A DNA stretch of 32,000 nt from Anaeroplasma sp. (GTDB lineage Bacteria; Bacillota_I; Bacilli_A; Acholeplasmatales; Anaeroplasmataceae). The stretch is from contig JBJEFS010000119.1 in NCBI GenBank assembly GCA_051874325.1, forward strand, positions 865-32,864, written 5' to 3'. The notes below the pieces were generated by a model. That model was not told where the DNA came from and ran no database searches. It was given only the letters and a program-made list of their open reading frames with translations. Positions 312 through 14,316 of this stretch are shown in pieces; positions within the stretch are counted from its first letter, which is position 1, and each line of letters opens with the position of its first letter. Made by a program: the position numbers and the translations under genes.

Positions 312-353
312 AAAAGGAACTACCCTCCTACAAGTAGCTCCATTGAATAAATT

Positions 354-396
354 ATTGTATAATGTATTATTTTTCGTGCCATTATACAATTTTTTT
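354..396 (+). terminator. Rho-independent terminator after the Spo0A_C-like gene
   Basis: Perfect 11-bp stem attgtataatg (354-364) / cattatacaat (380-390), followed directly by TTTTTT (391-396). Confidence 0.6.
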
Positions 397-514
397 ATTA
401 GGTACGAAAGTACCTAATAAAAGGGGATGTTTGTGCTAATTGCTTCACTACAATTAGCACATTTATATTCTAACAATTCGTTAAAATATTAACAATTTTA
501 TTTATTCTTTCATT

Positions 515-916
515 TTACAATAGATTATATTCTTCATCACTTACAGGTTCACACCAATCTGTTCCAGTATTTTCTCCTGGTACTTCTATTGCAATATGAG
601 TAAATTCACTATCTTTTGTAGCACCATGCCAATGTTTTACCCCTACTGGTATGTTAACTATATCTCCTACCTTTAGTTTTTGAGGTTCTTTTCCTTCTTC
701 TTGATACCAACCTTCTCCTTTAGTTACCATTAATATTTGTCCTCCGCCTTTTGTAGCTTTATGAATATGCCAATTGTTTCTACATCCTGCTTCAAAAGTA
801 ACATTAGCAACGCTTACGCCTAATTCTGTTGACAACATTTTTAAATAACTTTGTCCTATAAAATATTTTCCAAATGGATTTGGCTCTCCTTTTCCAAATA
901 ATACTTCGTATTCCAT
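515..916 (-). CDS. cupin domain protein
   Basis: 133 aa. Cupin motifs are visible: NNWHIHKATKGGGQILMV...GDIVNIPVGVKHWHGA. Last gene of the minus-strand operon. Confidence 0.85.
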   Translation of the reverse strand: MEYEVLFGKGEPNPFGKYFIGQSYLKMLSTELGVSVANVTFEAGCRNNWHIHKATKGGGQILMVTKGEGWYQEEGKEPQKLKVGDIVNIPVGVKHWHGATKDSEFTHIAIEVPGENTGTDWCEPVSDEEYNLL

Positions 917-928
917 AATAAATCCCTC

Positions 929-1543
929 CTAATCTACTCTTTCAATTCTAACTGTAAAATCTACATTCATATTTCCTAGTTTTTCAATACCAGATTCAAA
1001 TGTTCCTAATTTAACAAGAGAATTTGAATATCTAAAATCTTTATAAAAAACTGATAAATTTCCCCATGGTGCATAGTATGAAAAATCTCCTATTTGTGGA
1101 TCATAACCTGAAGGAGCTCCTTCAGTTGATAATTTTTCTGGTAAATTTGCAATTTTTTCTGTGTTATTATAATCTTCAAAAGTTAATGTTAAAGGTAACA
1201 TTTCTAAAAAATCTTTGCTTGATTGATTATTATCTAGTTTTACATATACTTCTTCATTATTAAAAGTTAATTTAATTCTTGTATTTTGCATATCTTCATT
1301 ACTATTCCCTTCATTGGTTTGTAGGCTGCTAGTTGTTTGTTCAGTTGAATTATTACTTTGCAATATTTCATTGTTATTTGTTATATTAGAAATTGTTTCA
1401 TTATCTTGCTCATACATTTGACTTGTGTTAGTATTATTATTTGTACCTTCTGTTTCTTTTGAATTTAAAAATACTATTCCACCAACAATTGCTGATATTA
1501 CTAAAATAGAAATTATAATTATAACTATTTTTTTCAATTTCAC
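929..1543 (-). CDS. cyclophilin-like fold protein (Cyclophil_like2 type) with N-terminal signal-anchor and N/Q/T-rich linker
   Basis: N-terminus MKLKKIVIIIISILVISAIVGG. C-terminal IKLTFNNEEVYVKLDNNQSSKDFLEMLPLTL...GDFSYYAPWGNLSVFYKDF matches the cyclophilin-like family commonly linked to flavodoxins. Confidence 0.7.
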   Translation of the reverse strand: MKLKKIVIIIISILVISAIVGGIVFLNSKETEGTNNNTNTSQMYEQDNETISNITNNNEILQSNNSTEQTTSSLQTNEGNSNEDMQNTRIKLTFNNEEVYVKLDNNQSSKDFLEMLPLTLTFEDYNNTEKIANLPEKLSTEGAPSGYDPQIGDFSYYAPWGNLSVFYKDFRYSNSLVKLGTFESGIEKLGNMNVDFTVRIERVD

Positions 1544-1565
1544 TCTTCTCCTTTATTTACAATTT

Positions 1566-2276
1566 TTAGAATCCTATTTTAGATAACCAATTTTGTACTG
1601 TACTTTTAGAATTACCTGCTGATGAACCACTTACTGCTAATCCTTCTGTTACAGTAGCATTTGGTTCTTCTTTTTTTATTTTATTAGGTGTTCCTGATAG
1701 TCCTGATCCTCCATGTGTAATAAATGGAGCTATTGTTTTTCCTGATAAATCATATTCATCTAAAAATGTATATAGTGGCATTGGCATATCTGCCCACCAG
1801 TTTGGATAACCTAAAAATATTGTGTCATATTGTTCTATATTATCAATTTTAGTTTTCAACTCTGGTCTTGCATTATTTCTTTGTTCTTCTTGTGCATAAT
1901 TTACTAATTCATTATAATCACTTGGATATGCTTTTGTTGTTTCTAATTTTATAATATCTCCTCCAACTTCTTCATGAATGAAATTTGCAACTTTTTCTGT
2001 GTTTCCACTTTGTGAAAAGTATAATACTAATACCTTTCCTTTTTCTTGTGTGTTTGTGATTATATTTTGTTGTTCATTTTCATTATTATTTGTATTTTCT
2101 TCTTGTTTTGCAACTTGGCTATTATTCTTATTATTTTGATTTGCTGTATTTAATGTGTTTTCTTCTGTATTATTGTTATTTTTATTTAAATTCATGGCTG
2201 CAAATACACCTCCTACTATAATTAATAAAATTACTACTATTATTAATGCTATAACTTTATTGTTCATTTTTATCAT
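1566..2276 (-). CDS. flavodoxin (Flavodoxin_4 type) with N-terminal signal-anchor and N/Q-rich linker
   Basis: VLVLYFSQSGNTEKVA...YDTIFLGYPNWWADMPMPLYTFLDEYDLSGKTIAPFITHGGSG. N-terminal hydrophobic segment KVIALIIVVILLIIVGGVFAA. Confidence 0.85.
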   Translation of the reverse strand: MIKMNNKVIALIIVVILLIIVGGVFAAMNLNKNNNNTEENTLNTANQNNKNNSQVAKQEENTNNNENEQQNIITNTQEKGKVLVLYFSQSGNTEKVANFIHEEVGGDIIKLETTKAYPSDYNELVNYAQEEQRNNARPELKTKIDNIEQYDTIFLGYPNWWADMPMPLYTFLDEYDLSGKTIAPFITHGGSGLSGTPNKIKKEEPNATVTEGLAVSGSSAGNSKSTVQNWLSKIGF

Positions 2277-2823
2277 CCTTTCCTTTTTTTAGATTCAAAC
2301 AATTTCCCATTGTTTCCCCTGTTTTTAAATAAGTATAATTAGGAAACTCAAATAATATTGGTTTAAATTTTGTATAATCTATTTTGCCTTTTTCGTTTAA
2401 ATTTTCCTCTTGTGCATAAGTATTCTCTATCTTCAAAATAAAATTTTCAAATGTATCAGTTTCATATATATCATCTACTTTACATTCCATAACAACTGGT
2501 GCTTCATTAATTATTGGAGCTCCTGCATCTCCTATGTGGTATTCAAATGTTTTTGATTTATCTACTTTACTACCACTTATACTTCCTACATAATCTGCCT
2601 TTTCTAACATTTTTTCATCTACTATATTTATAGAAAGTGTCTTTGTTTCTTTAATTCCTTTATTAGTATAATGTGGTTTTGCAAGACTAACCATAACTCT
2701 ATCATGTCCTATAATTCCACAATGTCCTACTAATACCCAATTAGCTTTTCCTTCTACCATTGTACCTACTACTATTACTGGCATAGGATATAATGCTAAT
2801 TTTGCTCCTATGTTTTTTTGCAT
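2257..2823 (-). CDS. flavin reductase-like FMN-binding domain protein
   Basis: 188 aa. LALYPMPVIVVGTMVEGKANWVLVGHCGII... is typical of the Flavin_Reduct family. Overlaps the next gene by 20 nt, suggesting translational coupling. Confidence 0.75.
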   Translation of the reverse strand: MQKNIGAKLALYPMPVIVVGTMVEGKANWVLVGHCGIIGHDRVMVSLAKPHYTNKGIKETKTLSINIVDEKMLEKADYVGSISGSKVDKSKTFEYHIGDAGAPIINEAPVVMECKVDDIYETDTFENFILKIENTYAQEENLNEKGKIDYTKFKPILFEFPNYTYLKTGETMGNCLNLKKGKDDKNEQ

Positions 2824-2835
2824 ATCAAAACCTCC

Positions 2836-3582
2836 TTATTTTGCAACTTCATTAATACATCTAATTGCATTTAAAGTTCTTGGATAACCCACATAAGGCA
2901 ATAATGCAGTTGCAGTATCTAATAATTTTTGCTTATCGTTTCCAACATTTAGATTTCCTTGAATATGTCCTTTTAATTGTGGCTCTAAACCACTTTGAGC
3001 TAAAAGTATAGAAAATGTAATTAGCTCTCTTGTTTTAACATCTAATCCATTTCTTGTATAGTAATCTCCAAAACAGTTATCTGACAAAAATTTTTGAATG
3101 TGTACTTGTTCTTTTGGAGAACTCTCGTATGCTTTATCAATTACATCTCCGAATATTGATTTTTGTACTTCTAATCCTTTATCAAATCTATTTTCCCTTG
3201 TTGTTGTACCTTGTTTTTCTAATGGTAATTTTATTCCTCTTTCTTCAAATATCTTGTTTGTTGGTTCTAATAAATCTAATACTTTTAATACTCCCACATA
3301 AGGCACTGATTGATATAAGATTTCTTTTATTTCAATAGGTGTTACGCCTACATTTAAAGCTGCTTTTAAAAATATCTCATATCTTTTTGGTGTTTGAGAT
3401 GCTATTGTTACTGCTAATATTACCATCTGTCTAGTTCTTTCATCCAAGCTCTCGTGTTCTAATACTTCATCAAAATTAAAATTTAATAATATTTCTATTA
3501 GTTCTTCATCTAGTGTATCTGTAACTCCTATTTCTGGAAATAGTTTTTCATGATTTTTCATTGCTTTATCTGTAATATTCAT
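2836..3582 (-). CDS. carboxymuconolactone decarboxylase (CMD/AhpD-like) family protein, two CMD repeats
   Basis: Two repeats of the CMD helix pattern (LDERTRQMVILAVTIA; LDVKTRELITFSILLAQ). Confidence 0.8.
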   Translation of the reverse strand: MNITDKAMKNHEKLFPEIGVTDTLDEELIEILLNFNFDEVLEHESLDERTRQMVILAVTIASQTPKRYEIFLKAALNVGVTPIEIKEILYQSVPYVGVLKVLDLLEPTNKIFEERGIKLPLEKQGTTTRENRFDKGLEVQKSIFGDVIDKAYESSPKEQVHIQKFLSDNCFGDYYTRNGLDVKTRELITFSILLAQSGLEPQLKGHIQGNLNVGNDKQKLLDTATALLPYVGYPRTLNAIRCINEVAK

Positions 3583-4256
3583 CTATCTTTCTCCCTTCTT
3601 GAGCGGTTGCTCTTAAATTTATTTAATATTTTAAAAATAAAATAAATAACTAGTTCTATAAATAGTATTGCTCCAATATATTTCAAATAAAATATAATTG
3701 TATTTTGGTTATAATCATAAAATTTAAAATCATTCAATAAAAACATATCTTCCCAAAGTTTTAATGATATAAATGAGTATAGTCCCAATCCCATTAAAAC
3801 TACTTGCATAAAGTAATATACATATTCAAATGTGCTATTTTTCATTTTTTTATTTATTTTACTCATCATACTATTTAAGTGTAATCCAACATGAATTGCC
3901 ATTAGTACAAATCCCCACGAAGTAGATGCCATATGCAACCTTCTTCCAAACATAGTTGTTTGTATATTTAAAAAAGAAAATACTGTACTTGAAATCATTA
4001 TGCCACTTATTATCATTCCAATCATTGCAATTAGTAACAATAAATTAATGATAATATGAAATGTTCTTTGGAAGTTGTGCTTTCCTTTTACTATACTTTT
4101 ATACCATTTGATATTCAGAATGTTGTGAATAATAAATAATATAAATGTAATTGTTCCTAATATTTCGTGTATCTTATTTCCTGTTGCGAAATATCCCATA
4201 AGAATGATAAAAAATATTGTCATTGCTATATCTATTATGCTTCTAAATTTTTTCAT
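3579..4256 (-). CDS. DUF4405-like integral membrane protein
   Basis: 225 aa, multi-TM. N-terminal IIDIAMTIFFIILMGYFATGNKIHEILGTITFILFIIHNILNIKWY resembles the His-containing DUF4405 signature. ATGA overlap with the next gene. Confidence 0.6.
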   Translation of the reverse strand: MKKFRSIIDIAMTIFFIILMGYFATGNKIHEILGTITFILFIIHNILNIKWYKSIVKGKHNFQRTFHIIINLLLLIAMIGMIISGIMISSTVFSFLNIQTTMFGRRLHMASTSWGFVLMAIHVGLHLNSMMSKINKKMKNSTFEYVYYFMQVVLMGLGLYSFISLKLWEDMFLLNDFKFYDYNQNTIIFYLKYIGAILFIELVIYFIFKILNKFKSNRSRREKDR

Positions 4257-4265
4257 ATCATCACC

Positions 4266-5765
4266 CTACCTTTCAGATATTCCGTTTTTAGAAAGCCAAT
4301 TTGAAATATCATTTGATAAAGTTGATCCACCTGAATAGTGAATACTTAATCCTTCTCCTATTTTTGAATTTGGTGCTAATTTTGATATGTCTGAAATACT
4401 TTGTCCGAATTCTCCTCCTCCATGACTACAAAATGGTAAAATTGTTTTTTCTGATAAATCATATTCTTCTAAAAATGTAGCAACTGGCATTGGAATTGTT
4501 GCCCACCAATTTGGATACCCTAACATGATTACATCATATTGTTCAATATTTTCTACTTTATTTTTTAGTTCTGGTCTTGCATTTGAGTTTAAATCTCTTT
4601 GTGCTTCGTCTAATACTTTATTATAATTTGAAGAATAAGGATTTACTAATTCTAATTCAAATAAATCTGCTCCTGTCTTTTCTTGGATTATTTGTGCTGC
4701 TCCTTCTGTATTTCCACTCCAAGAAAAATATACTATTAATGCTTTTTGATTATCATTTTGTGTTTGAGCCAAATTTTTATTTGTATTTTCAACTATTTCA
4801 TTACTTGAAGTATTATCTACATTTCTTGCAATTCTAAATCCAGTATTATTCATTTTTTGATTTGGTGCTAACGAAGATCTATATGCACTTCTCATGTGTT
4901 TTGCATAATCGTTCCAACTTCCTCCACGATTAATTCTTAAACTTCCAGTTGTTACTCCTGATGGATTATCTGTATTTTGTGTGTCATATTCTCCATAATA
5001 GTCAAAACACCATTCTCTTACATTTCCATGAATATCATACAATCCCCATTTGTTTGGAGAAAAACTACCTACTTTAGTTGTTGTTTGTCTATATTCTCCT
5101 GGTTTGGTTTCAAGATTACTTTGTGAAAAATAATTTTCTTCTATTCCATAAGGATAATGTCCATAAAAATTAGCTTCGTCTGCACTTATTGAATTTTCTG
5201 TGTTAAATGGAGTTGTTGTTCCTGCTCTTGCTGAATATTCCCATTCTGCTTCTGTTGGAAGTCTATATCCATTGTTTGCTCTATTCCAAGTTACATTTTC
5301 TCCATTTATAGTGTAAACTGGTGTAAGTCCTTGTTTTTCACTTAAACGATTACAATATTCTATTGCGTCATACCATGTAATATTTTCAACTGGTAAATCT
5401 TCTCCTTTAAAATTGCTTGGATTTTCTCCCATTATTTCTTGATATTCTTTTTGTGTTATTTCATATTTTCCTATATAGAAATCATTTAATGTTACTTTAT
5501 GTTGCATCTCATCTTGTTCTCTTTGTGCTTCGGTTTCTGGACTTCCCATTTCAAATGTTCCACCTTTTATAAGAATAAGTCCATCTGTTCCTTCAGTAGT
5601 ATTCATATTATCACTTCTTTCTTGTTCATTATTTGCCTGAGCTGGATTGTTTGTTTCGTTTTTTACTTTATTATTATTCGTTAGTGCAAAAATTGTAATT
5701 CCAACTGCTAATACTATTAGAATACTAATTAATAAAGCTATTACTTTCTTATTCATCTCTTTCAT
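4266..5765 (-). CDS. signal-anchored FGE-sulfatase (SUMF1/EgtB/PvdO) domain fused to a C-terminal flavodoxin domain
   Basis: FGE-type motifs: GGTFEMGS, ITWYDAIEYCN, RLPTEAEWEYSARAG, WGLYDIHGNVREWC, RGGSW, FRIAR. These are followed by ALIVYFSWSGNTE...GYPNWWATIPMPVATFLEEYDLSEKTILPFCSHGGG. Confidence 0.85.
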   Translation of the reverse strand: MKEMNKKVIALLISILIVLAVGITIFALTNNNKVKNETNNPAQANNEQERSDNMNTTEGTDGLILIKGGTFEMGSPETEAQREQDEMQHKVTLNDFYIGKYEITQKEYQEIMGENPSNFKGEDLPVENITWYDAIEYCNRLSEKQGLTPVYTINGENVTWNRANNGYRLPTEAEWEYSARAGTTTPFNTENSISADEANFYGHYPYGIEENYFSQSNLETKPGEYRQTTTKVGSFSPNKWGLYDIHGNVREWCFDYYGEYDTQNTDNPSGVTTGSLRINRGGSWNDYAKHMRSAYRSSLAPNQKMNNTGFRIARNVDNTSSNEIVENTNKNLAQTQNDNQKALIVYFSWSGNTEGAAQIIQEKTGADLFELELVNPYSSNYNKVLDEAQRDLNSNARPELKNKVENIEQYDVIMLGYPNWWATIPMPVATFLEEYDLSEKTILPFCSHGGGEFGQSISDISKLAPNSKIGEGLSIHYSGGSTLSNDISNWLSKNGISER

Positions 5766-5992
5766 CCTTTCTTATTTTTAGTTTTTTCTAAATCTACTAA
5801 TAAATAATCGAGAATATCCACCTCCCTTTGACTTTGGTGCATTCGTTCTAATATTGTCTTTCTATGTTTTGCAAGTAAAATTAATATTCTTTCTATGTCA
5901 TTTTGTTCTAATAGCTTAAAAAATTCTTTTATAATTTTATCATTGCAACCTGCATCTTCTAGGTTTTGTTGTAATCTTTCTTTTTCTTCCAT
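5762..5992 (-). CDS. small helical hypothetical protein (first gene of the operon)
   Basis: 76 aa ORF with ATGA overlap to the next gene and a GGAGG RBS (plus-strand cctcc near 6000). No recognisable domain. Confidence 0.55.
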   Translation of the reverse strand: MEEKERLQQNLEDAGCNDKIIKEFFKLLEQNDIERILILLAKHRKTILERMHQSQREVDILDYLLVDLEKTKNKKG

Positions 5993-6029
5993 TTAAAACC
6001 TCCTACCCATTTAATTATCTTTTGATATT

Positions 6030-6058
6030 ATTATATGACTTATATTTTAAAATAACAA
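6030..6058 (-). promoter_or_regulatory. candidate sigma-A promoter of the flavodoxin/FGE operon
   Basis: Minus strand reads TTGTTA-N17-TATAAT (-35 at 6053-6058, -10 at 6030-6035), about 40 nt upstream of the start at 5992. Confidence 0.45.
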
Positions 6059-6085
6059 ATACTTATTTTGAATAGTTAGCCATAG

Positions 6086-6114
6086 TTGACAGGAATAGCA
6101 AAAAAAATTATAAT
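6086..6114 (+). promoter_or_regulatory. consensus sigma-A promoter of the LysR gene
   Basis: TTGACA (6086-6091), N17, TATAAT (6109-6114). GGAGGG RBS and ATG at 6146 lie downstream. Confidence 0.65.
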
Positions 6115-6145
6115 TAAATTGTATATTGAAAATGGAGGGTTATTT

Positions 6146-7043
6146 ATGGAATTAAGAGTTTTGAGATATTTTTTAGCAGTTGCAAGGGAACAATCCATAA
6201 CAGGTGCTGCTGAAAGTTTACATGTAACACAACCCACTCTTTCAAAACAATTAATGGATTTGGAAGATGAACTTGGAAAAAAATTATTTATTCGTGGGAA
6301 TAGAAAAATCACTCTTACTGAGGATGGAGTTTATTTAAGGAAAAGAGCTCAAGAAATAATAGATTTAACTGATAAAACTGAAGCTGAATTTCATTCTTCA
6401 GATGAAATAATAACTGGAGATATTTATATAGGTGCTGGTGAAACAGAAAGTATGAGAATTGTCGTTAAAGTAATTACAAAATTACAAGCAAAATATCCTC
6501 GGAATACACTTTCATTTTTTAAGTGGTAATGCAGATTCAGTTATGGAAAGATTAGATAAAGGACTTCTTGATTTTGGTGTATTAATAGAACCTTCTGATA
6601 TAAAAAAATTGGATTGTTTATCGATTCCTTATACTGATAATATGGGATTATTGATGAGAAAAGATTCTCCTTTAGCAAAACAGAATTATATTTTACCAAA
6701 GGATTTAATTGATATTCCTATAATTGTTCCTGCTTCTATTGTTAATTATAATAGTTTTTTTAAATGGATTGGATCTGATTTTGAAAAATTAAATATTATT
6801 GCAACTTGTAATTTGATTTATAATCCTTCTTTATTAGTAGAAGAAGGTAATGCCTATGCGATTTGTATTGATAATCTAATTAATACTACTGGAGATAGTA
6901 ATCTATGTTTTAGACCTTTTACTCCTAGTGTTAATCTTTCTTCTGTAATTGTATGGAAGAAATATCAAGTTTTTTCCAAGGCTTCTCAAAAATTTTTAGA
7001 TGAGTTAAAAAAAGAATTTAAAAACAATAAAGATGCTTTTTAA
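6146..7043 (+). pseudogene. LysR-family transcriptional regulator, interrupted by a 1-nt frameshift
   Basis: MELRVLRYFLAVAREQSITGAAESLHVTQPTLSKQL is a LysR HTH. The frame ends at 6529 (KYPRNTLSFFKW*). Deleting one C near 6497-6500 gives KYPGIHFHFLSGNADSVMERLDKGLLDFGVLIEP, continuous with ORF 6543..7043. Confidence 0.8.
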
Positions 7044-7068
7044 AGTCATCTTTATTGTTTTATTGTTT

Positions 7069-7452
7069 TTATGGTTGCTCCATAAAATCTTTTCTTTTCC
7101 CTGCTTCTATTTCATTATATAATTCTATTTTATAATCTAATCTTTCTATTGTCTTTTTTATTTCTTCTTGTTTATCTAGTAGTACCTCTCTTTGTTCAAT
7201 TAATAATTGTTTTCTAGCTGTTACTGTTTCTTTACCTTGTTTAAACAAAGTCATATATTCTATTAGTGCTTCAATTGGCATTCCAGCAGATCTCATACAT
7301 TTTATAAATTCAACCCATTTACATGATTTTTCATCAAAATCTCTTATTCCTGATTTTGTTCTTGGAATTTCTGGTAACAAACCAATTCTCTCGTAATATC
7401 TAATTGTATCTTGTGTTAAATCATATTTTTTACTTACTTCTGCTATTGTCAT
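7069..7452 (-). CDS. MerR family transcriptional regulator
   Basis: MTIAEVSKKYDLTQDTIRYYERIGLLP plus a C-terminal coiled coil. Sits immediately downstream of the DXS-like gene. Confidence 0.9.
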   Translation of the reverse strand: MTIAEVSKKYDLTQDTIRYYERIGLLPEIPRTKSGIRDFDEKSCKWVEFIKCMRSAGMPIEALIEYMTLFKQGKETVTARKQLLIEQREVLLDKQEEIKKTIERLDYKIELYNEIEAGKRKDFMEQP

Positions 7453-7466
7453 ATAATTTCTCCATC

Positions 7467-9227
7467 CTATATCATTTTTTCTATATCTTTAATTATTTGT
7501 TCTTTTGTTATTCCATTTTCTTTTAATAATTCATTTACATCATATCTATCATAAAATGATTTAGCAATTCCATAATTTTTGACTTTTACTGAACTTTCTC
7601 CATAAAATCTTGCAATTTTTTCTCCGAATCCACCTTCTAGCATTCCATCTTCTAAAGTTATAACAACATTATGGTCTAATTCTAATTTTTTTAGTAATTC
7701 TTTATCTAATCCAGTAATATATCTAGGATTTATTAAAGTAGCTTGTATATTTAATTTTTCATGCATCTCTTTTTGTATTTCTTCTCCTAATTGGTAGAAG
7801 TCTCCTAATGCTATAATTGCAACTTTATTTCCTTCCTTTTCTATTTTATATTTGTTTAAATCATTATAATCTGTATCAACTTTTCTTCCATCTGATATTA
7901 CACCATTACATGGAATTCTAATTGCTACTGGATGTTCATTTTGTTCTATGCTCCACTCTAACATTGCAAAATATTCTTCTTTTGATGTTGGTGCTAAATA
8001 GACCATATTAGGTATATTTGATATTAAGGCAATATCATAGATTCCTAAATGAGTAACATCATTCATTCCATATACTGAAGCTGTATTTATTAAAATTGTA
8101 GCAGAATTATTGTTTATAGATAAATCTTGTGATAATTGATCATAGGTTCTTTGCATAAAGCTAGAATGTGTAGCAAAAATAGGTTTTCCACCATTTTTTG
8201 CAATTCCAGAAGCCATTGCTATACCATGTTCTTCTGCTATTCCAACATCTACAAATTGTTCTCCAGCAAGTTCTCTTTTTTCTTTTGTAAATCCTATATT
8301 GGTTGGTACACCTGCAACTATTGCAACTACCTTTTCATCTTTTTTCATTTTTTCTAATAAATAATCTGCTGTTAATGTCCCATAATCTTCTCCATCAAAA
8401 TTAAATTTTGATTTTCCTGTTTCTATATCAAAAGGCATTGTCCAATGCCATGTTTCTTTGTTTTCTTCGGCTGGTTTATATCCTTTTCCTTTTTCTGTAT
8501 TGATATGAACTACAATTGGATGTTTTATATCTTTTACATTTTCAAATGCTTTTATAAGTTCTTCTATATTATTTCCTTCGTTTACATATATATAGTCTAA
8601 TCCCATTGCTTTAAATAAATTACATTCACAAGTTCCATTTGACTCTCTTAATTGTTTTAAGTTTTTGTATAATCCCCCATGATTTTCTGCAATAGACATA
8701 TCATTATCATTTACAACAATTATAAAATTACTTTTTTGCTCTCCTGCAAAATCAAGTCCCTCTAATGCTTCTCCTCCACTTAAAGAACCATCTCCTATAA
8801 CTGCTATTACATTATAGTTTTCTTTCTTTAAATCTCTTGCTTTTGCTAATCCTGATGCTAAACTTATGGATGTTGATGTATGTCCTATTTTAAAGAAATC
8901 ATGCTCACTTTCATCTGGGTCAGAATACCCTGTTACATCATCATATTTTTCTTCGTAAATAAACGCATCTTTTCTTCCTGTAAGGATTTTGTGTGGATAG
9001 CTTTGATGTGATACATCATATACTATTTTATCTACTGGTGAATTAAATACATAATGCATAGCTATTATTGCTTCTACCATACCGAAATTTGGTCCAAAAT
9101 GTCCTCCATGAATACTTAATTTTTTTAATAAGATTTCTCTTATTTCTTCAGCAAGTTTGTTTAATTCTTCACTTGATAAATTTTTTAAATCCTTTGGCTC
9201 ATTTATTTTATTTAATATACTTAACAT
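7467..9227 (-). CDS. 1-deoxy-D-xylulose-5-phosphate synthase-like thiamine-diphosphate enzyme (divergent DXS/transketolase paralog)
   Basis: 586 aa. DXS-like N-terminus (PKDLKNLSSEELNKLAEEIREILLKKLSIHGGHFGPNFGMVE...SHQSYPHKILTGR), a GDGSLSGGEALEGL ThDP motif, and pyrimidine-binding and C-terminal domains. Confidence 0.7.
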   Translation of the reverse strand: MLSILNKINEPKDLKNLSSEELNKLAEEIREILLKKLSIHGGHFGPNFGMVEAIIAMHYVFNSPVDKIVYDVSHQSYPHKILTGRKDAFIYEEKYDDVTGYSDPDESEHDFFKIGHTSTSISLASGLAKARDLKKENYNVIAVIGDGSLSGGEALEGLDFAGEQKSNFIIVVNDNDMSIAENHGGLYKNLKQLRESNGTCECNLFKAMGLDYIYVNEGNNIEELIKAFENVKDIKHPIVVHINTEKGKGYKPAEENKETWHWTMPFDIETGKSKFNFDGEDYGTLTADYLLEKMKKDEKVVAIVAGVPTNIGFTKEKRELAGEQFVDVGIAEEHGIAMASGIAKNGGKPIFATHSSFMQRTYDQLSQDLSINNNSATILINTASVYGMNDVTHLGIYDIALISNIPNMVYLAPTSKEEYFAMLEWSIEQNEHPVAIRIPCNGVISDGRKVDTDYNDLNKYKIEKEGNKVAIIALGDFYQLGEEIQKEMHEKLNIQATLINPRYITGLDKELLKKLELDHNVVITLEDGMLEGGFGEKIARFYGESSVKVKNYGIAKSFYDRYDVNELLKENGITKEQIIKDIEKMI

Positions 9228-9260
9228 TTTTTATCCTCCTATAATAAAATTTTCTATTAT

Positions 9261-9291
9261 TATATATCACTTAGAGTTAACTCGAAGTCAA
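9261..9291 (-). promoter_or_regulatory. MerR-type promoter/operator of the DXS-like/merR operon
   Basis: Minus strand reads TTGACT-N19-TATATA. The 19-nt spacer carries the dyad ACTTCGAGTT/AACTCTAAGT (9269-9288, 18/20 symmetric). Confidence 0.65.
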
Positions 9292-9311
9292 GAGTTTTTA
9301 TGAAATTTTTT

Positions 9312-9355
9312 AAAAAAGTTAGATTAGTTATTATCTTAACTTATCTAACTTTTTT
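9312..9355. terminator. bidirectional hairpin terminator after the NAD(P)-binding gene
   Basis: aaaaaagttagat (9312-9324) pairs with atctaactttttt (9343-9355). A/T runs lie on both sides. Confidence 0.6.
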
Positions 9356-9361
9356 GTATTA

Positions 9362-9967
9362 CTATTGTTTTATATTTTTAGTTATACTTATATTTTCATA
9401 AGAATATAAATCTTCATTATTCATTATTTCAAGAGCGATTTTTATAACAGATGGAATAGTAGTAATATATCCTTTTGCGTTTTCATTTTTTCTTGTAATA
9501 ACATAATCATCTTCTTTCCCATCTCTTAAATATCCAGGTCTAAAAATAGTATATTTAATTTTACTATTTTCAAGTATATCTGCTGCCTTACGATTAGGTA
9601 CTTGATCTGGGTTATTATCTACATTATCCTCATCGTCCATATCTTTTGGAATTTCATTATATATTCCTACTGCTCCCATAAATAATAATCTTTTTATCTT
9701 ATCTTCACATTGAACAAGATTTTCAGCAACTATTGGAAGGTCATCTCCAGATATAGTACAATAAACAATATCTTGATTATCTAATACTTGTTCTAATTCT
9801 TTCTTTTTCGTTGCGTCTATATTAAACACTTTAATTCTATCATTATCCTTATAAATTTCTTTTGCATTTCTTGAAACTAATGTTAATTTATATTCAGTAT
9901 CTCTTAACAATTTGTTTGTAAGTTCTTTTCCAAATGTTCCAGTTGCACCCAAAATTAATACATTCAT
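9362..9967 (-). CDS. NAD(P)H-binding (NmrA/SDR-like) oxidoreductase
   Basis: MNVLILGATGTFGKEL is a Rossmann GxxGxxG motif. 201 aa. Confidence 0.8.
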   Translation of the reverse strand: MNVLILGATGTFGKELTNKLLRDTEYKLTLVSRNAKEIYKDNDRIKVFNIDATKKKELEQVLDNQDIVYCTISGDDLPIVAENLVQCEDKIKRLLFMGAVGIYNEIPKDMDDEDNVDNNPDQVPNRKAADILENSKIKYTIFRPGYLRDGKEDDYVITRKNENAKGYITTIPSVIKIALEIMNNEDLYSYENISITKNIKQ

Positions 9968-10065
9968 ATGTTTCTCCTTTTTTTATAATTTAGTAACTTT
10001 TAATTTTTTGCTTTTTTTACTTTTATATTATTTTTAGCATAACCTATTGTTGCCATTTTTCCTCC

Positions 10066-10905
10066 TTACCAGTTAAAAGACATTTCAACTAAATTTGGAT
10101 TTTCTGAGCTTCCAACTACTGGTGTCTTTTTGTCTAAACTTTCCATTGCTTTAATTTCATCAGTTGTTAAGCTAAAATCAAAAATATCAATATTTTCTTT
10201 CATTTTTTCAATATCAGCAGTTTTTGGAATAACTACAATTTTCTTTTGAGTAAAATATCTTAATACTATTTGTCTTGTTGTCTTATTATATTTTTTAGAA
10301 ATATCTACTAATATCTTATCTTCATATACTTCATTTATTTTTCCTTGTCCAAATGGTGCATACCCCATATGTGCAATGTCATATTTGTTTAACCATTTAT
10401 TATTTTCAAATTGTTGATTTAAAATGTTCGTTTCAATTTGATTTATGCAAGGTTTTATTTCACTATAATGTGCTAAATCTATAAATCTATCTGCCTCAAA
10501 GTTAGATACTCCTATTGCTTTTATTATATCTTTTTTGTAGTATTCTTCTAAAACTCTATATGCTTCATAATAATTTGCAAATGGCCAGTGCAATAGCACA
10601 AGATCAATATAATCTGTTTGCAAATTTTTAAGTGATTTTTCAATAGTAGTTATTGCTTGTTCTTTCTCATAATTTTTGTAGTTCAATTTTGTAACAATAT
10701 AAAATTCTTCTCTTGAAATTCCAGAATTTTTAATTGCATTTCCAACCTCTTTTTCATTTCCATAAGCCTCTGCTGTATCTATAAGCCTGTATCCACATTT
10801 TATTGCATTTAAAACTGCATTTTCGCAATCTTCTCCATTTAACAAAAATGTTCCAAATCCTAACAATGGCATTTCTTTGCCTTGATTTAACTTTAAATAT
10901 TCCAT
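10066..10905 (-). CDS. aldo/keto reductase
   Basis: LGFGTF...GYRLIDTAEAYGNE...LHWP...IGVSNF are classic AKR motifs. Confidence 0.9.
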   Translation of the reverse strand: MEYLKLNQGKEMPLLGFGTFLLNGEDCENAVLNAIKCGYRLIDTAEAYGNEKEVGNAIKNSGISREEFYIVTKLNYKNYEKEQAITTIEKSLKNLQTDYIDLVLLHWPFANYYEAYRVLEEYYKKDIIKAIGVSNFEADRFIDLAHYSEIKPCINQIETNILNQQFENNKWLNKYDIAHMGYAPFGQGKINEVYEDKILVDISKKYNKTTRQIVLRYFTQKKIVVIPKTADIEKMKENIDIFDFSLTTDEIKAMESLDKKTPVVGSSENPNLVEMSFNW

Positions 10906-10947
10906 AATTTCACCCTTTCTTTTTAGCTTTTTTTATGCTATAATGAT

Positions 10948-10978
10948 ATTATATTTTGTTCGAGTTACTCGAAGTCAA
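10948..10978 (-). promoter_or_regulatory. MerR-type promoter/operator of the aldo-keto reductase operon
   Basis: Minus strand reads TTGACT-N19-TATAAT. The spacer contains the perfect dyad TTCGAGT-A-ACTCGAA (10959-10973). Confidence 0.7.
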
Positions 10979-11005
10979 TAGTTTTATAGAAAAGAGTTGA
11001 AAAAA

Positions 11006-11413
11006 ATGAAAAAAGATTTTTATACTATTAAAGATATAACAGAAATGTTCGGCTTAACAGAACATACTGTTAGGTATTATTGTGATATGGGCTTACTTCC
11101 AGTTCAAAGAGATAAAAATAATCGTAGAATATTTAATCAAGAATCTTTAAATTGGTTTGAAGGTATAAAATGTTTAAGAGGTTGTGGCATGTCTATTGAA
11201 GCAATTAAAAAATATTCTGATTTATGCTTAAATGGTAATTCTAATTTAGAACAAAGGTATGAAATTATAAAAGAGCAATTACCTAATGTTCAAAAGCAAT
11301 ATGATGAGGCTAAACAAAGATTAGATTATATAAAACATAAAATCAAAGATTATGAAGATATGCTTTCTGGAAAGATTCCTGATAAATCTAATCCTTCTGA
11401 ATGGAAAAAGTAG
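11006..11413 (+). CDS. MerR family transcriptional regulator
   Basis: YTIKDITEMFGLTEHTVRYYCDMGLLP. The ATG at 11006 has better RBS spacing than the TTG at 10997. Divergent from the AKR operon. Confidence 0.85.
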   Translation: MKKDFYTIKDITEMFGLTEHTVRYYCDMGLLPVQRDKNNRRIFNQESLNWFEGIKCLRGCGMSIEAIKKYSDLCLNGNSNLEQRYEIIKEQLPNVQKQYDEAKQRLDYIKHKIKDYEDMLSGKIPDKSNPSEWKK

Positions 11414-11435
11414 TACAAAAATGTACTACTTTTCT
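11405..11435 (+). terminator. rho-independent terminator
   Basis: gtagtaca (11410-11417), aaaa loop, tgtactac (11422-11429), then TTTTCT. Confidence 0.7.
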
Positions 11436-11607
11436 AGGCTGTTAACAAAAATATTTTTTTGATACTTTGTCGTCAGTCTGAAGGAAATAGTAGTTAAACT
11501 ATTCCCTTAATTTATTATAAGAGCAAATTTTTATATAAATTACTATTCTTCTGTAACTATAATATCATAAAGGTGAATAGTTTTCAAATGTTATTCGACT
11601 TTATAAT

Positions 11608-12117
11608 TTATTCAAATAATATTCTTTTTATTTTCTCCAAAATACTACCATTTTTCTCTTCTATTAGCTTTTGCTGCAATAATTCTTGTTTTTCTTTCAA
11701 TATAGTTCTTTTAGCACAAATAATTTTATATGCAAGTTCTGCTCCATTTATTTTAGGATATTTATACAAACAATCTGAAATATTTTTATATCTATAACAT
11801 AAACCTGGATCTGGAGTAAATGATACGACTATAAATTTTGGGCTTTCTTTCTTCTCACTATAATTTTTTATTATATCAAGTCCTGTAAATTGATGATTTC
11901 TCATTAAATCAGTAATTACAACATCAGGCTTTAACTCCTCTATCATTCTAATCTCTTCATCATCATTATTGGCAATTCCAAGTATTTTTATTTGGTTGTA
12001 CTCGCTTAAAATTTTTTTGATTTCTTCACATGTTTTTATTTCATCATCTGCAATTATAATATTTATTTCATTTATCTTTACATCATTATCAGTTTGTTTT
12101 TCTATCTCCTCTTTCAT
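11608..12117 (-). CDS. receiver-domain-only (CheY-like) response regulator with a C-terminal helical tail
   Basis: IIIADDE acidic pair, PDVVITDL phospho-acceptor context, FIVVSF, then a K-x-P region. No output domain. AGGAG RBS 7 nt upstream. Confidence 0.6.
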   Translation of the reverse strand: MKEEIEKQTDNDVKINEINIIIADDEIKTCEEIKKILSEYNQIKILGIANNDDEEIRMIEELKPDVVITDLMRNHQFTGLDIIKNYSEKKESPKFIVVSFTPDPGLCYRYKNISDCLYKYPKINGAELAYKIICAKRTILKEKQELLQQKLIEEKNGSILEKIKRILFE

Positions 12118-12220
12118 ATTTTTGCTCCTTTCGTTTATTGCTAATTGGTACGCAACACTTAATTTAAAAAAATATTATATTATTATTAAAAATTATATTT
12201 ACAGGAGGAGTAATAATATA

Positions 12221-12478
12221 ATGAAAACTAAGGACTTTAACGGCTATCAAAACATTGTCGGCAAAAATATTAAAAAATATAGAGAACTTAAAGGTCTATC
12301 TCAAAGAGAACTTGTAAACAAAGTTGCTCTTTTAGGTGTTACACTTTATAATTCTGATATTTCAAGAATTGAAAACAATACATTATTTATTCGTGATTAT
12401 GAAGAATACGCAATATGTAAAGTTTTAGGGATTTCTATTGCCCAATTACACGAAGATAGCGATAAATTTTTTAAATAA
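12221..12478 (+). CDS. XRE-family helix-turn-helix regulator
   Basis: ATG at 12221 is preceded by AGGAGG (12203-12208). IVGKNIKKYRELKGLSQRELVNKVAL...SRIENN is the HTH_3 pattern. The 11969 start in the ORF track is a spurious extension. Confidence 0.85.
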   Translation: MKTKDFNGYQNIVGKNIKKYRELKGLSQRELVNKVALLGVTLYNSDISRIENNTLFIRDYEEYAICKVLGISIAQLHEDSDKFFK

Positions 12479-12516
12479 AACAAATTTCTATTACTATGTA
12501 GTAGTAATTTGTTTTT
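12477..12516. terminator. bidirectional terminator between the convergent XRE and AbrB-like genes
   Basis: aaaacaaatt (12477-12486) pairs with aatttgtttt (12506-12515), with further inner pairing and T-runs on both strands. Confidence 0.55.
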
Positions 12517-12931
12517 ATTTAATTTTTATTAAAATAATCATATTATCTTTTATGCATATTTTCATTTTATCATTTTCCATTATATTTAATTCTTTCCTTA
12601 ATTCTATTGGAATAATTACTCTCCCTAATTCATCAATAGTCCTTAAAGAATGATCTTTATTATAACTTTTATCAATATTAGTCTTAATTCTCTTAACTTT
12701 AATATCAAGTTCTATTTCATTATTAATAATAGCTTTTACTTTTTCAATTATATCTTTGCGTATATCTACCTTAATTTTTTTTAATATAATATTATTTCCA
12801 CTTCTATATATTTCTAATTTATCTCCAGCATTAATTTTTAATTCTTTTCTTTTGACTAATGGTATTACAATTTGACCTAATTCACTAATTGTTCTAATTT
12901 CATTTTTTCTTCGTACTTTTAAATTCTCCAT
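12515..12931 (-). CDS. protein with two tandem AbrB/SpoVT-type swapped-hairpin DNA-binding domains
   Basis: RTISELGQIVIPLVKRKELKINAGDKLEIYRSGNNIILKK and RTIDELGRVIIPIELRKELNIMENDKMKICIKDNMIILIK both match the AbrB N-domain (VDELGRVVIPIELRRTLGI...). Confidence 0.85.
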   Translation of the reverse strand: MENLKVRRKNEIRTISELGQIVIPLVKRKELKINAGDKLEIYRSGNNIILKKIKVDIRKDIIEKVKAIINNEIELDIKVKRIKTNIDKSYNKDHSLRTIDELGRVIIPIELRKELNIMENDKMKICIKDNMIILIKIK

Positions 12932-13201
12932 AACATTTTCCTTTCTTTTATTAAATTTCTATTTAATGTTGAAAAACTATTATGGCTTTTAATTTTATTT
13001 ATTACTATATTTAAACAACTTCTATTATCTTAATAAGCCATTTTTAATATATAATCCTCCCTTCCATTTTGAATGTCATACTTTTATTTTCATTTAGCTA
13101 TTAATTGTATTGAAATCTATTATTAGTACATATAAAGTTCGTATATTTCCTAATTAATTGCTGTTTCTCCTTTTTTCTACTAAATATGATTAATTTTTTA
13201 T

Positions 13202-13230
13202 ATTATACTTACTTTCTCTTTTATAGTCAA
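13202..13230 (-). promoter_or_regulatory. consensus sigma-A promoter reading toward the AbrB-like gene (long leader)
   Basis: Minus strand reads TTGACT (13225-13230), N17, TATAAT (13202-13207). This lies about 270 nt upstream of the start at 12931. Confidence 0.55.
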
Positions 13231-13255
13231 CCCTTTCAGTAGTCAAAACAACTCT
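13231..13255 (+). repeat. inverted-repeat arm A (ccctTTCAGTAGTCAAAAcaactct)
   Basis: Matches the reverse complement of 13734-13758 at 20 of 25 positions, with a perfect 14-nt core (13235-13248). Confidence 0.7.
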
Positions 13256-13347
13256 TTTACAGTTATATCAAGTTTAAAAAATTTTTCGACTTTTTTCTAC
13301 AATTTTAGCAAAAAAAGAAACTAGAATTTCTCTAGTTTCCATTATTT

Positions 13348-13683
13348 CTAACTATTTAAAGCATTATATATTGCTATATTTGTTAGTTTATATATTGATA
13401 ATCCGTATTTATTTTTCAGTTCTTCCAACTTGTTATATAAGGTTTCTCTTATTGCAAAGTTATGTGCCTCAACTATTTCATTGTCAGATCTTTCATATAG
13501 TTTTACATTTTCAGTATTTATCATTTCTATAATTGCTGCATTAACTAATTTGTTTATTGATGCATCATAAATTTCTGCTAGTTCTGTAAGTTTTTCATAT
13601 AATGAGTTATCTATTTCAATTCTTCTTTTTAAAAGATTATCTTTTTTTAGAAAGTATTTATCAAAAGTATTCAATTTAACCAC
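13348..13683 (-). CDS. protein with two tandem ribbon-helix-helix (CopG/Arc-like) modules
   Basis: RRIEIDNSLYEKLTELAEIYDASINKLVNAAIIEMI and HNFAIRETLYNKLEELKNKYGLSIYKLTNIAIYNAL each show a strand-helix-helix pattern. The start is uncertain: GTG at 13683, or TTG at 13674 behind a GAGGTG RBS. Confidence 0.65.
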   Translation of the reverse strand: MVKLNTFDKYFLKKDNLLKRRIEIDNSLYEKLTELAEIYDASINKLVNAAIIEMINTENVKLYERSDNEIVEAHNFAIRETLYNKLEELKNKYGLSIYKLTNIAIYNALNS

Positions 13684-13733
13684 CTCGCAATACTATTATA
13701 ATGTCCTTTTTTCTGTATTTTAATTCCTGCGTG

Positions 13734-13758
13734 GTAGTTATTTTGACTACTGAATGGT
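13734..13758 (-). repeat. inverted-repeat arm B
   Basis: Plus strand reads gtagttaTTTTGACTACTGAAtggt, the reverse complement of arm A. It lies between the alpha-CTD-like gene and the RHH gene promoter region. Confidence 0.7.
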
Positions 13759-13769
13759 ATATTTAAAAA

Positions 13770-13976
13770 TTAGTTTTTTAACCCAAGTCCTAATAGTTGT
13801 AATTCTGTTTCAATCTTCTTTATATCAAATTGTACAATTTCTAATTTTCTTAAATCACTTTTATTTTTTTTGCATAATAGTCCAATAGTTTTTATATTAT
13901 TATCTTTTAAAGTTTTTATTGTATTATCACTTATATCTAATCTATCAATACTTTGGTTATTTAATTTATCATCCAT
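13770..13976 (-). CDS. stand-alone RNA polymerase alpha-subunit C-terminal-domain (alpha-CTD, HhH)-like protein
   Basis: SIDRLDISDNTIKTLKDNNIKTIGLLCKKNKSDLRKLEIVQFDIKKIETELQLLGLGLK aligns by eye with E. coli RpoA [60 protein letters not shown]. Confidence 0.7.
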   Translation of the reverse strand: MDDKLNNQSIDRLDISDNTIKTLKDNNIKTIGLLCKKNKSDLRKLEIVQFDIKKIETELQLLGLGLKN

Positions 13977-13991
13977 TTTTTACATCCTTTT

Positions 13992-14258
13992 TTAATCCTT
14001 TATCGCTATCATTAGTTCATTTGATTCTACTTTTCTTTTTGCATTTTGATATTCAAATTCAGCATTTGTAAAGTAAACTCTATATCCTTTGTTTTCAAAA
14101 TAATCTCTACTTACCCTCAATACTTCATCTATTTCTTTTTCCGTTAATCCACTTTTCACTTTTAGTTCAAAATAGGAATATCTAATATAATTTTCATTTT
14201 CATTTTCTTTTTGATTTATAAAATTTATTGTAAAAATTTTTAGTTCTTTGTCTGTCAT
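13992..14258 (-). CDS. hypothetical protein
   Basis: The ATG at 14258 (MTDKELK...) has a GGGAG RBS 8 nt upstream. The GTG at 14279 in the track is less likely. No recognisable domain. Confidence 0.5.
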   Translation of the reverse strand: MTDKELKIFTINFINQKENENENYIRYSYFELKVKSGLTEKEIDEVLRVSRDYFENKGYRVYFTNAEFEYQNAKRKVESNELMIAIKD

Positions 14259-14286
14259 TATATTCACTCCCAATCTCACGACAGTT

Positions 14287-14316
14287 ATTATATCATATTT
14301 TTATTTTTTTGTCTAA
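14287..14316 (-). promoter_or_regulatory. candidate promoter for the 13992-14258 / alpha-CTD gene pair
   Basis: Minus strand reads TTAGAC-N18-TATAAT. Confidence 0.4.

Follow-up and report, generated by a model that had tools for sequence, protein, structure and literature searches.

A conserved group of six small genes as a likely transcriptional control segment of a CD1110-type integrative and conjugative element

The genes considered here are six small open reading frames (ORF1 to ORF6) in a 32,000-nucleotide (nt) stretch of DNA from Anaeroplasma sp. (GenBank assembly GCA_051874325.1, contig JBJEFS010000119.1, positions 865 to 32,864 of the forward strand), referred to below as the window, in which Pfam scans recognize a Gram-positive-type conjugation system. 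The window is very AT-rich (GC content 21-32%), and nearly all genes between 11608 and about 32000 lie on the minus strand. Beyond the conjugation genes and a Y-family polymerase gene come, in this order, ORF6, encoding an 88-amino acid (aa) protein; ORF5, encoding a free protein that resembles the C-terminal domain of the RNA polymerase alpha subunit (alpha-CTD); ORF4, a tandem ribbon-helix-helix (RHH) protein; ORF3, a tandem AbrB-type protein; ORF2, a helix-turn-helix (HTH) protein; and ORF1, a receiver domain (Table 1). A first reading, made from the sequence alone, had singled them out as a candidate control or host-takeover locus at the edge of a mobile element. All six ORFs are indeed present, the domain calls of this sequence-only reading are correct for ORF1 to ORF5, with ORF6 falling outside known families, and its description of the cluster as a collection of small DNA- or protein-binding modules devoid of enzymes holds. 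The data presented below suggest that these genes form an internal control segment of an integrative and conjugative element (ICE).

Table 1. Genes and sites of the six-gene segment and of its surroundings, in window positions (RBS, ribosome-binding site; O1 and O2, the two candidate operators)
Feature	Position	Strand	Description
Promoter-like site of ORF6-ORF5	14287..14315	-	TAGACA, 17 nt, TG-n-TATAAT (extended -10); 11/12 with TG
ORF6	13992..14258	-	88 aa, acidic, unnamed family, winged-helix-like topology; partner of ORF5
ORF5	13770..13976	-	free 68-aa alpha-CTD-like protein, own RBS
O1, right arm	13733..13757	.	palindrome GTAGT-N7-ACTAC containing TTGACTAC, just 5' of the ORF4 promoter
ORF4 promoter-like site	13695..13723	-	TTAAAA, 17 nt, TATAAT
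ORF4	13348..13674	-	108 aa, single-chain tandem RHH, TraY-like fold
Intrinsic-terminator-like hairpin 3' of ORF4	13316..13340	-	11 pairs, then T-run
O2, left arm	13223..13253	.	minus strand TTGACTAC (13246->13239), 16 nt later TTGACTAT (13230->13223)
P2, strong promoter-like site	13202..13230	-	TTGACT, 17 nt, TATAAT; 11/12; faces ORF3, ORF2, ORF1
Leader between P2 and ORF3	12932..13201	-	~270 nt, strong RBS, mini-ORF MAY-stop (13041->13030), small hairpin and U-run
ORF3	12515..12931	-	138 aa, single-chain tandem AbrB/SpoVT-type; optional module member
Hairpin between convergent 3' ends of ORF3 and ORF2	12470..12522	.	25-nt arms, 80% complementary, 3-nt loop
ORF2	12221..12478	+	85-aa XRE-family HTH, putative repressor, opposite to all neighbours
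Divergent control region ORF2/ORF1	12118..12220	.	imperfect palindrome TTGC-N10-GCAA at 12138-12155; conserved in L122
ORF1	11608..12117	-	169-aa receiver-only response regulator with C-terminal helix
Cargo island between ORF1 and Spo0A_C-like gene	330..11600	.	redox enzymes, two MerR and one LysR regulator (Pfam)
Spo0A_C-like regulator gene, 3' part	3..311	+	runs off the window's left end; next conserved backbone gene
Conjugation genes			DUF3991/Toprim primase-like, NikA/MobC-like, MobA/VirD2-type relaxase, DUF3801 (PcfB) (Pfam)
Further conjugation genes			pilin-like proteins, MT-A70 methyltransferase, VirB6-like, PrgI, VirB4, sortase, CHAP hydrolase (Pfam)
After conjugation genes			Y-family polymerase and 132-aa partner gene (Pfam)

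The gene set recurs in related elements. Contigs and loci carrying relatives of the cluster genes were retrieved and are designated by L-numbers (L009, L019, L122, etc.). A common plan is shared by L019, L020, L035, L049, and L080, in which genes of the type IV secretion system (T4SS; PrgI, VirB4, sortase, CHAP, and a 60-aa gene) are followed by cargo, and then by ORF6, the alpha-CTD-like gene, ORF4 (78-81% identical), the tandem AbrB gene (of the five, only in L049), an oppositely oriented HTH gene, the receiver gene, and a gene for a 107-aa protein. Next come a Spo0A_C-like gene, again on the opposite strand, and a gene for a 143-aa sigma-region-4 protein together with that for its 71-aa partner (which has a weak HTH_16 match, 16.7 bits versus a cut-off of 22), and the series ends with genes for a PemK toxin, a pair of tyrosine recombinases, and a protein of 111 aa. 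All six genes are found, with order and orientation kept, in L122/L123, and L114 carries the alpha-CTD-like gene, ORF4, the XRE gene on the opposite strand, and the receiver gene. The co-occurrence of alpha-CTD-like, tandem RHH, and tandem AbrB genes next to T4SS genes, which the sequence-only reading had proposed as a check, is therefore positive. That reading would have been undone by finding the same gene set already described as an ICE regulation module; searches of Pfam, NCBIfam, PHROGs, PADLOC, and the literature turned up no characterized system composed of these genes. Because gene order and non-coding sites are both conserved, the genes are unlikely to be random cargo.

In L122/L123, identity to the window proteins is 31% for ORF6 and 45% for ORF5, and rises to 91% for ORF4, 61% for ORF3, 92% for ORF2, and 70% for ORF1. 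From these values, low in ORF6 and ORF5 and higher from ORF4 to ORF1, the segment consists of two sub-modules, ORF6+ORF5 and ORF4...ORF1, which undergo recombination independently of each other. The cluster had initially been taken as one unit, and of this idea the linkage and conservation stand; the single unit itself gives way to two sub-modules and an optional ORF3, which is present in L049 and L122/L123 and absent in L019. ORF6 and ORF5 are a co-inherited pair: over all loci, there are 34 distinct alpha-CTD-like sequences, 31 of them with an examinable flank, and an ORF6 homologue adjoins the alpha-CTD-like gene in 26 (26/34, or 26/31 of those with an examinable flank), immediately upstream in 24 and immediately downstream in 2. 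Among the remainder, the contig end is too near in three, and five have no ORF6 neighbour, two of these being truncated fragments. A scan centred on the alpha-CTD-like protein, with a narrower alignment as the query, added 47 further loci in metagenomes; the same scan of viral contigs detected no ORF5 relative, and tblastn of ORF5 and ORF6 against 72,556 plasmid records gave no match. ORF6 is the more widespread of the two, with homologues at 48 loci in species-representative genomes.

Several non-coding sites are conserved along with the genes. The ORF6 promoter motif TATGATATAAT and the RBS GGAAGTGA recur 5' of ORF6 homologues in most loci, and the sequence beyond this promoter, which belongs to the cargo, differs between loci; the ORF6 start is an ATG 3' of a GGGAG RBS. 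A 25-bp inverted repeat bracketing one of the genes had been noted earlier. The repeat is real and surrounds ORF4, with the correction that its arms, at 13232-13253 and 13736-13757, measure 22 nt and are complementary at 20 of 22 positions. The 19-nt core of the repeat has two occurrences in the window, versus 0.06 expected, and two matches were seen in none of 100 shuffles. Each arm is a copy of a conserved TTGACTAC site and lies just 5' of a conserved promoter. At O1, the palindrome ends about 10 nt before the ORF4 promoter-like site, whose -10 and spacing are kept in L019, L049, and L122. At O2, the TTGACTAT stretch, a second copy, contains the -35 of P2; the pattern of TTGACTAC followed by TTGAC(T/A)A is kept in L019, L049, and L122, as are P2 itself and a hairpin equivalent to the ORF4 terminator. 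The exact 10-mer TTTTGACTAC is found, in the window and in L019, only at O1 and O2. O1 with the ORF4 promoter, the terminator, and O2 with P2 are thus conserved in four diverged elements, and the surrounding non-coding sequence drifts. The possibility that the repeat bounds a mobile cassette was rejected, as there is no target-site duplication and each arm lies in a conserved promoter region. Of note, in L019, which is devoid of ORF3, P2 points directly at the 3' end of the opposite HTH gene, with the receiver gene beyond.

Two further non-coding regions deserve mention. In the leader that separates P2 from ORF3, and especially at 12982-13061, a 7-bp stem (AUGGCUU/AAGCCAU) includes the start codon of the three-codon mini-ORF and is followed by a U-run; at the same place, L122 has a nine-codon mini-ORF (MAYLVIDVV and a stop). 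Judging from these sequences, the leader could be an attenuator. It was also considered as a riboswitch or other structured leader RNA, and this was set aside since there is no Rfam match and the folding z-score (-0.3) is not unusual. In the divergent region between ORF2 and ORF1, the palindrome has the promoter region on one side and the RBS of the receiver gene on the other. L114 has, at the same position (about 2520-2540), a different and perfect palindrome, TGGCAAAC-TGA-GTTTGCCA, and its XRE protein is 42% identical to ORF2; these palindromes are candidate XRE operators that would change along with the protein.

ORF4 is predicted with confidence by AlphaFold2 (AF2; mean predicted local distance difference test score, pLDDT, of 91.9) to contain two beta-alpha-alpha units, namely strand 14-22, helices 23-35 and 40-54, and strand 68-76, helices 77-90 and 94-106. 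Its best matches in the Protein Data Bank (PDB), as determined with Foldseek, are chains E, F, and G of the F-plasmid relaxosome, with template modelling (TM) scores of 0.70-0.72 and a best root-mean-square deviation of 2.4-2.9 Å; VirC2, DndE, and an engineered single-chain Arc come next. F-relaxosome structures hold three TraY molecules, and the F TraY monomer reproduces the whole fold of an RHH dimer in one polypeptide (PMC12117103). Identity between ORF4 and the TraY-like chains is 10-12% in the structural alignments. ORF4 has no match in Pfam or NCBIfam, and 223 homologues were collected.

ORF3 matches PF04014 (54.1 bits, cut-off 24.7) and TIGR01439 (58.4 bits, cut-off 28.3), in two stretches in each case, and the halves of the protein share 51% identity. 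ORF2 scores below the cut-off for HTH_19 (25.3 bits versus 30.2) and matches repressor families of PHROGs at 1e-8; an oppositely oriented HTH gene adjoining the receiver gene recurs in relatives. ORF1 matches Response_reg (PF00072) with 34.1 bits (cut-off 30.2) and has no output domain. Its translation displays the motifs IIIADD (the acidic pair D24, D25), VVITD (D69, the phospho-acceptor position), and VVS (S98), and a YKYPK motif with a Lys near 119. In NCBIfam, it comes closest to the Spo0A receiver, with a score far below the cut-off of that model. ORF1 homologues are found in L009, L019, L114, and L122; neither the window nor the gene tables of the relatives revealed a histidine kinase that could serve ORF1. 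The Spo0A_C protein of these ICEs (L019 12733-13491 and relatives) has itself a degenerate receiver-like N-terminus and lies beside the separate receiver-only protein, an arrangement that resembles a split or mimicked Spo0A.

The sequence-only reading had placed the cluster at the left end of the element, and this did not survive comparison with the retrieved loci. With the left part of the window as the query, blastn matches positions 3-323 to a backbone gene of related elements, and tblastn identifies in 3-311 a stretch of 102 residues with 63% identity to the C-terminal portion of the Spo0A_C-like gene of the relatives, with a Pfam Spo0A_C score of 26.5 bits against a cut-off of 25. An end at 11.6 kb is thereby ruled out. 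Since in relatives the Spo0A_C-like gene lies shortly beyond the receiver gene, the region from about 330 to 11600 is inserted cargo, and the ICE extends past the left end of the window. This island has almost no similarity to related elements. The control segment is therefore flanked by two cargo slots, with the Y-family polymerase on one side and the 11-kb redox island on the other.

Taken together, the six ORFs are interpreted as a conserved internal transcriptional control segment of a CD1110-type ICE, likely an on/off switch, with a probability of roughly 0.55. From the gene content, the folds, the conserved synteny, and the conserved promoters and sites, we infer the following binding partners, direction of regulation, and link to excision. 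ORF4 would bind the two TTGACTAC sites, O1 and O2, thereby regulating its own synthesis from O1, which lies just 5' of its promoter, and repressing or gating P2 from O2, which lies on the P2 -35. The P2 transcript would run through the leader and, where present, ORF3, then head-on into ORF2 and towards ORF1. In complete relatives, this transcription would continue to the genes for the Spo0A_C-like protein, the sigma-region-4 protein and its small partner, the PemK toxin, and the two tyrosine recombinases. By analogy with Tn916, such read-through may counteract the XRE repressor and switch on the distal genes that would trigger excision and transfer. The ORF1 receiver would add a phosphorylation input, and ORF6 and ORF5, made from their own extended -10 promoter, would act together through protein-protein contacts.

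Some observations weigh against this interpretation. The top structural matches of ORF4 are relaxosome accessory proteins and not repressors. The hairpin between ORF3 and ORF2 resembles a bidirectional terminator, which puts read-through from P2 into ORF2 and ORF1 in doubt. The copy of the element in the window may be defective, with both the coupling protein and the LysR genes split, and the distal module of the relatives (sigma-like protein, integrases) is not visible within the window, which ends at the Spo0A_C-like gene. As for ORF6, its isoelectric point is 5.3, its putative recognition helix (residues 40-56) has a net charge of -3, and the modelled winged helix is weakly indicated by its structural matches; moreover, it is also found without ORF5 and without T4SS genes within 10 kb, so that its function may be unrelated to ICE control.

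The ORF6-ORF5 pair also invites another explanation, namely that it is a device directed at the host, in which an alpha-CTD mimic titrates host factors or replaces the alpha-CTD at chosen promoters, with ORF6 as an adaptor. ORF5 is a stand-alone ORF without the alpha N-terminal domain or the linker. It scores 25.2 bits against Pfam RNA_pol_A_CTD (PF03118; cut-off 23.8), and its best match among solved structures (phmmer against PDB) is to B. subtilis alpha-CTD chains, with an E-value of 6e-4 over residues 2-67. Its family comprises 99 clusters at 50% identity, nearly all of them 65-75 aa long and almost entirely stand-alone, which would fit an independent device. In an alignment to the B. subtilis alpha-CTD over 66 residues, the Arg of the first hairpin is replaced by N, and G-R-K-S of the second hairpin by V-Q-F-D; in E. 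coli numbering, the equivalents of R265, G296, K298, and S299 read N, V, F, and D. The '265 determinant' of E. coli (R265, N268, G296, K298, and S299) is thus not retained. Because the contact residues are N, V, F, and D, and because the DNA-contact positions are not conserved as basic across the family, ORF5 probably does not bind DNA in the manner of an alpha-CTD. It is more likely that ORF5 and the acidic ORF6 act through protein contacts, be it on RNA polymerase, on a regulator or sigma-like protein of the element, or on a host regulator. Alignment to a Firmicute alpha-CTD from end to end, minus the DNA-contact residues, is what a protein-binding mimic would show.

ORF6 has no family match in Pfam, PHROGs, NCBIfam, or PADLOC, and its own family of 456 homologues or clusters includes no member with a Pfam domain. 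Its AF2 model (pLDDT 82) has the order helix-strand-helix-helix-strand-loop-strand, with no significant structural match in the PDB (best E-value 0.34, TM at most 0.56) or in a viral library (best E-value 0.017, TM at most 0.61). ORF6 is 65-100% identical across elements with differing neighbours, as would be expected if its host target were conserved, a strong and constitutive-looking promoter is dedicated to the pair, and sigma-like proteins recur in these elements, all of which suits a host-directed device. Against it, contact of ORF5 with RNA polymerase is purely hypothetical, the Tyr that mediates Spx binding in the B. subtilis alpha-CTD is an Ile in the ORF5 alignment, ORF6 often has other partners (f10_84, f6_70) in place of ORF5, and no ORF5 relative was seen in the scanned viral contigs, phages being where takeover factors are typical. 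Host takeover, as first suggested for this locus, has no direct support, and a host-directed role of the pair is unlikely; it can coexist with an element switch made of the ORF4...ORF1 part. It is similarly doubtful that ORF5 and ORF6 represent a new class of element-encoded transcription factor, in which a DNA-binding-deficient alpha-CTD mimic and its acidic partner would dock onto RNA polymerase or a sigma-region-4-only protein, and steer transcription to ICE promoters or away from alpha-CTD-dependent host promoters.

Outside T4SS contexts (L030, L033, L052, L072; L036-L045), ORF6 is found in two types of surroundings: in one, it is preceded by an XRE gene and by a gene of 70 aa, with a large recombinase-like protein of about 550 aa encoded nearby; in the other, the genes that come next encode a membrane-like protein of 84 aa, two HTH proteins, a double receiver, and tyrosine recombinases. 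The proteins P0279, P0292, P0340, and P0350, of 260-900 aa, consist almost only of 2-9 tandem alpha-CTD-like repeats. Domain fusions were considered as a clue to the function of the alpha-CTD-like domain and proved uninformative, such proteins being the repeat alone.

ORF4, and perhaps ORF6 and ORF5, could instead be DNA-processing accessories that bind the repeat as part of a relaxosome, at a second origin of transfer (oriT), or as a recombination directionality factor. The TraY-fitting relaxosome chains that head the list of ORF4 matches, followed by VirC2, are all relaxosome accessory factors, and inverted repeats are typical of oriT and attachment (att) regions. Many excisionases are winged-helix proteins, a topology that the ORF6 model recalls. 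However, the relaxase gene lies 13 kb from ORF4 and adjoins its own NikA/MobC-like RHH accessory gene, ORF4 is barely more than one-tenth identical to the TraY-like chains, both copies of the repeat are placed exactly 5' of, or on, the -35 of conserved promoters, and ORF6 accompanies different types of recombinase, either a tyrosine pair or the recombinase-like protein of about 550 aa. A role in DNA processing is thus rather improbable, somewhat more so than a host-directed one. Lastly, unrelated passengers, i.e., remnants of toxin-antitoxin systems (a MazE-like ORF3 and an Arc/HicB-like ORF4) with stray regulators, would account for the matches of ORF3 and ORF4 to antitoxin-type families in PHROGs, for the optional ORF3, and for the PemK toxin elsewhere in related elements, but family scans of the neighbours detected no toxin gene next to ORF3 or ORF4, order and orientation are kept even where ORF6 is only 31% identical, and the non-coding sites are conserved, which makes this explanation very improbable. 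A defence system was also considered and rejected, all PADLOC matches being below a convincing level.

The control segment belongs to an element whose VirB4 shares 77% identity with a protein that a Monoglobus pectinilyticus record annotates as 'VirB4-like conjugal transfer ATPase, CD1110 family'. The gene order of this record, the nearest annotated T4SS relative, matches that of the T4SS in the window, and at the equivalent place it has two sigma-70 genes and an ImmA/HTH pair. The element is an ICE whose transfer machinery belongs to the clostridial 'CD1110/CD1115' type (VirB4, VirD4, PrgI, sortase, CHAP, PcfB/DUF3801, and a MobA/VirD2-type relaxase). Relatives come solely from gut metagenomes and from metagenome-assembled genomes labelled Clostridia or Clostridium sp.; the hosts would be uncultured low-GC gut Firmicutes, an uncertain assignment since all sequences are metagenomic. 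A nucleotide search with the 3-kb region as the query gave no match in plasmid and phage collections. No tRNA gene was found as a marker of the integration site, and a search for oriT near the relaxase returned small hairpins only, which allowed no decision; neither oriT nor att sites were located. Look-ups of exact proteins for the MerR and receiver genes found the same arrangement from one study only, and no empty site.

Other features of the window were noted in passing. The gene for the VirD4-type coupling protein (24166-26019, minus strand) is divided into three ORFs of 188, 280, and 114 aa, and is in L022 a single 601-aa protein; the split reflects either a pseudogene, and hence a defective element, or assembly errors. 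The MT-A70 family methyltransferase gene (23077-23652, minus strand) lies within the T4SS operon; no restriction partner is visible in its vicinity. The 132-aa gene 3' of the Y-family polymerase (14328-14726, minus strand) has no Pfam or NCBIfam match and accompanies the polymerase in several diverged elements (L030, L043, L087-L096, L108). The 11-kb cargo island encodes enzymes of the redox and detoxification type, including a cupin, a cyclophilin-like protein, flavodoxins, a flavin reductase, CMD, DUF4405, an FGE-sulfatase/flavodoxin fusion, a DXS/transketolase-like protein, and an aldo-keto reductase, and its LysR gene is in two ORFs (6086-6529 and 6543-7043).

ICEs equipped with such a T4SS spread antibiotic-resistance genes among gut anaerobes, and the module bears on how their excision and transfer are switched on. 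In relatives, the cargo slots on either side of the module contain an Erm-type rRNA methyltransferase (RrnaAD), a BlaR/BlaI-type beta-lactam sensor and repressor, and tet genes. Parts of the module that lend themselves to testing are the TraY-like tandem RHH protein with its two candidate operators, and the strong promoter that faces an opposite repressor gene; the receiver domain could in addition tie transfer to host signalling. The most unusual part is the free alpha-CTD paralogue devoid of DNA-binding residues, together with its ORF6 partner; for this paralogue no characterized counterpart was found, and the literature searched on free alpha-CTD proteins in mobile elements yielded nothing pertinent. 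If ORF5 does contact RNA polymerase, such contact would give the mobile element a novel means of directing transcription.

The individual folds and the logic of an ICE switch are already known, and it is their present combination that has no description in the libraries and literature searched. ORF5 is above the cut-off for the RNA polymerase alpha-CTD family (PF03118), but differs from its members in being stand-alone, in forming its own family, and in its changed DNA-contact residues. MraZ consists of two AbrB-type repeats in one chain, and ORF3 shares this tandem form; its MraZ scores are far below the cut-off, so it is not MraZ. ORF3 likewise shares the AbrB/MazE domain of MazE-type antitoxins, but has no adjacent toxin and is optional in the module. 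As with F TraY and VirC2 of pTi, a single ORF4 chain comprises both RHH units, and TraY is in addition a regulator of a promoter. In contrast to TraY, ORF4 has no sequence homology to it, does not lie beside the relaxase gene, and has presumed sites that are promoter-proximal and not in oriT.

With the ImmR/ImmA switch of ICEBs1-type elements, the module shares an XRE-type HTH gene near transfer and recombination genes, but the partner of the XRE protein is here a receiver domain. The sequence-only reading had seen no resemblance to such switches, and this is borne out: no ImmA/IrrE metalloprotease was found in family scans of the window ORFs covering the cluster and its neighbours, and it is the nearest annotated T4SS relative that has an ImmA/HTH pair in this place. 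The closest parallel in layout is Tn916, whose regulatory region reads tetM, orf6, orf9 (on the opposite strand), orf10, orf7, orf8, xis, int. The transfer machinery differs, with Orf16, Orf21, and Orf20 types in Tn916 versus CD1110-type VirB4, VirD4-type, and MobA/VirD2 proteins here, and Tn916 has no alpha-CTD-like protein, tandem RHH, tandem AbrB, receiver, or Spo0A_C-like protein. In Tn916, read-through from a cargo gene produces an RNA antisense to orf9, relieving orf7 and orf8, and then xis and int (PMC5812530). Complete relatives of the window element have a similar layout, with conjugation genes, a cargo slot, small genes, an opposite HTH repressor gene, a sigma-region-4 gene with its small partner, and recombinases. 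This order is found in L019, L035, L049, L080, and L040, and the likeness is one of gene order. It extends to the presence of an upstream promoter, here the predicted P2, that fires towards, and antisense to, the repressor gene.

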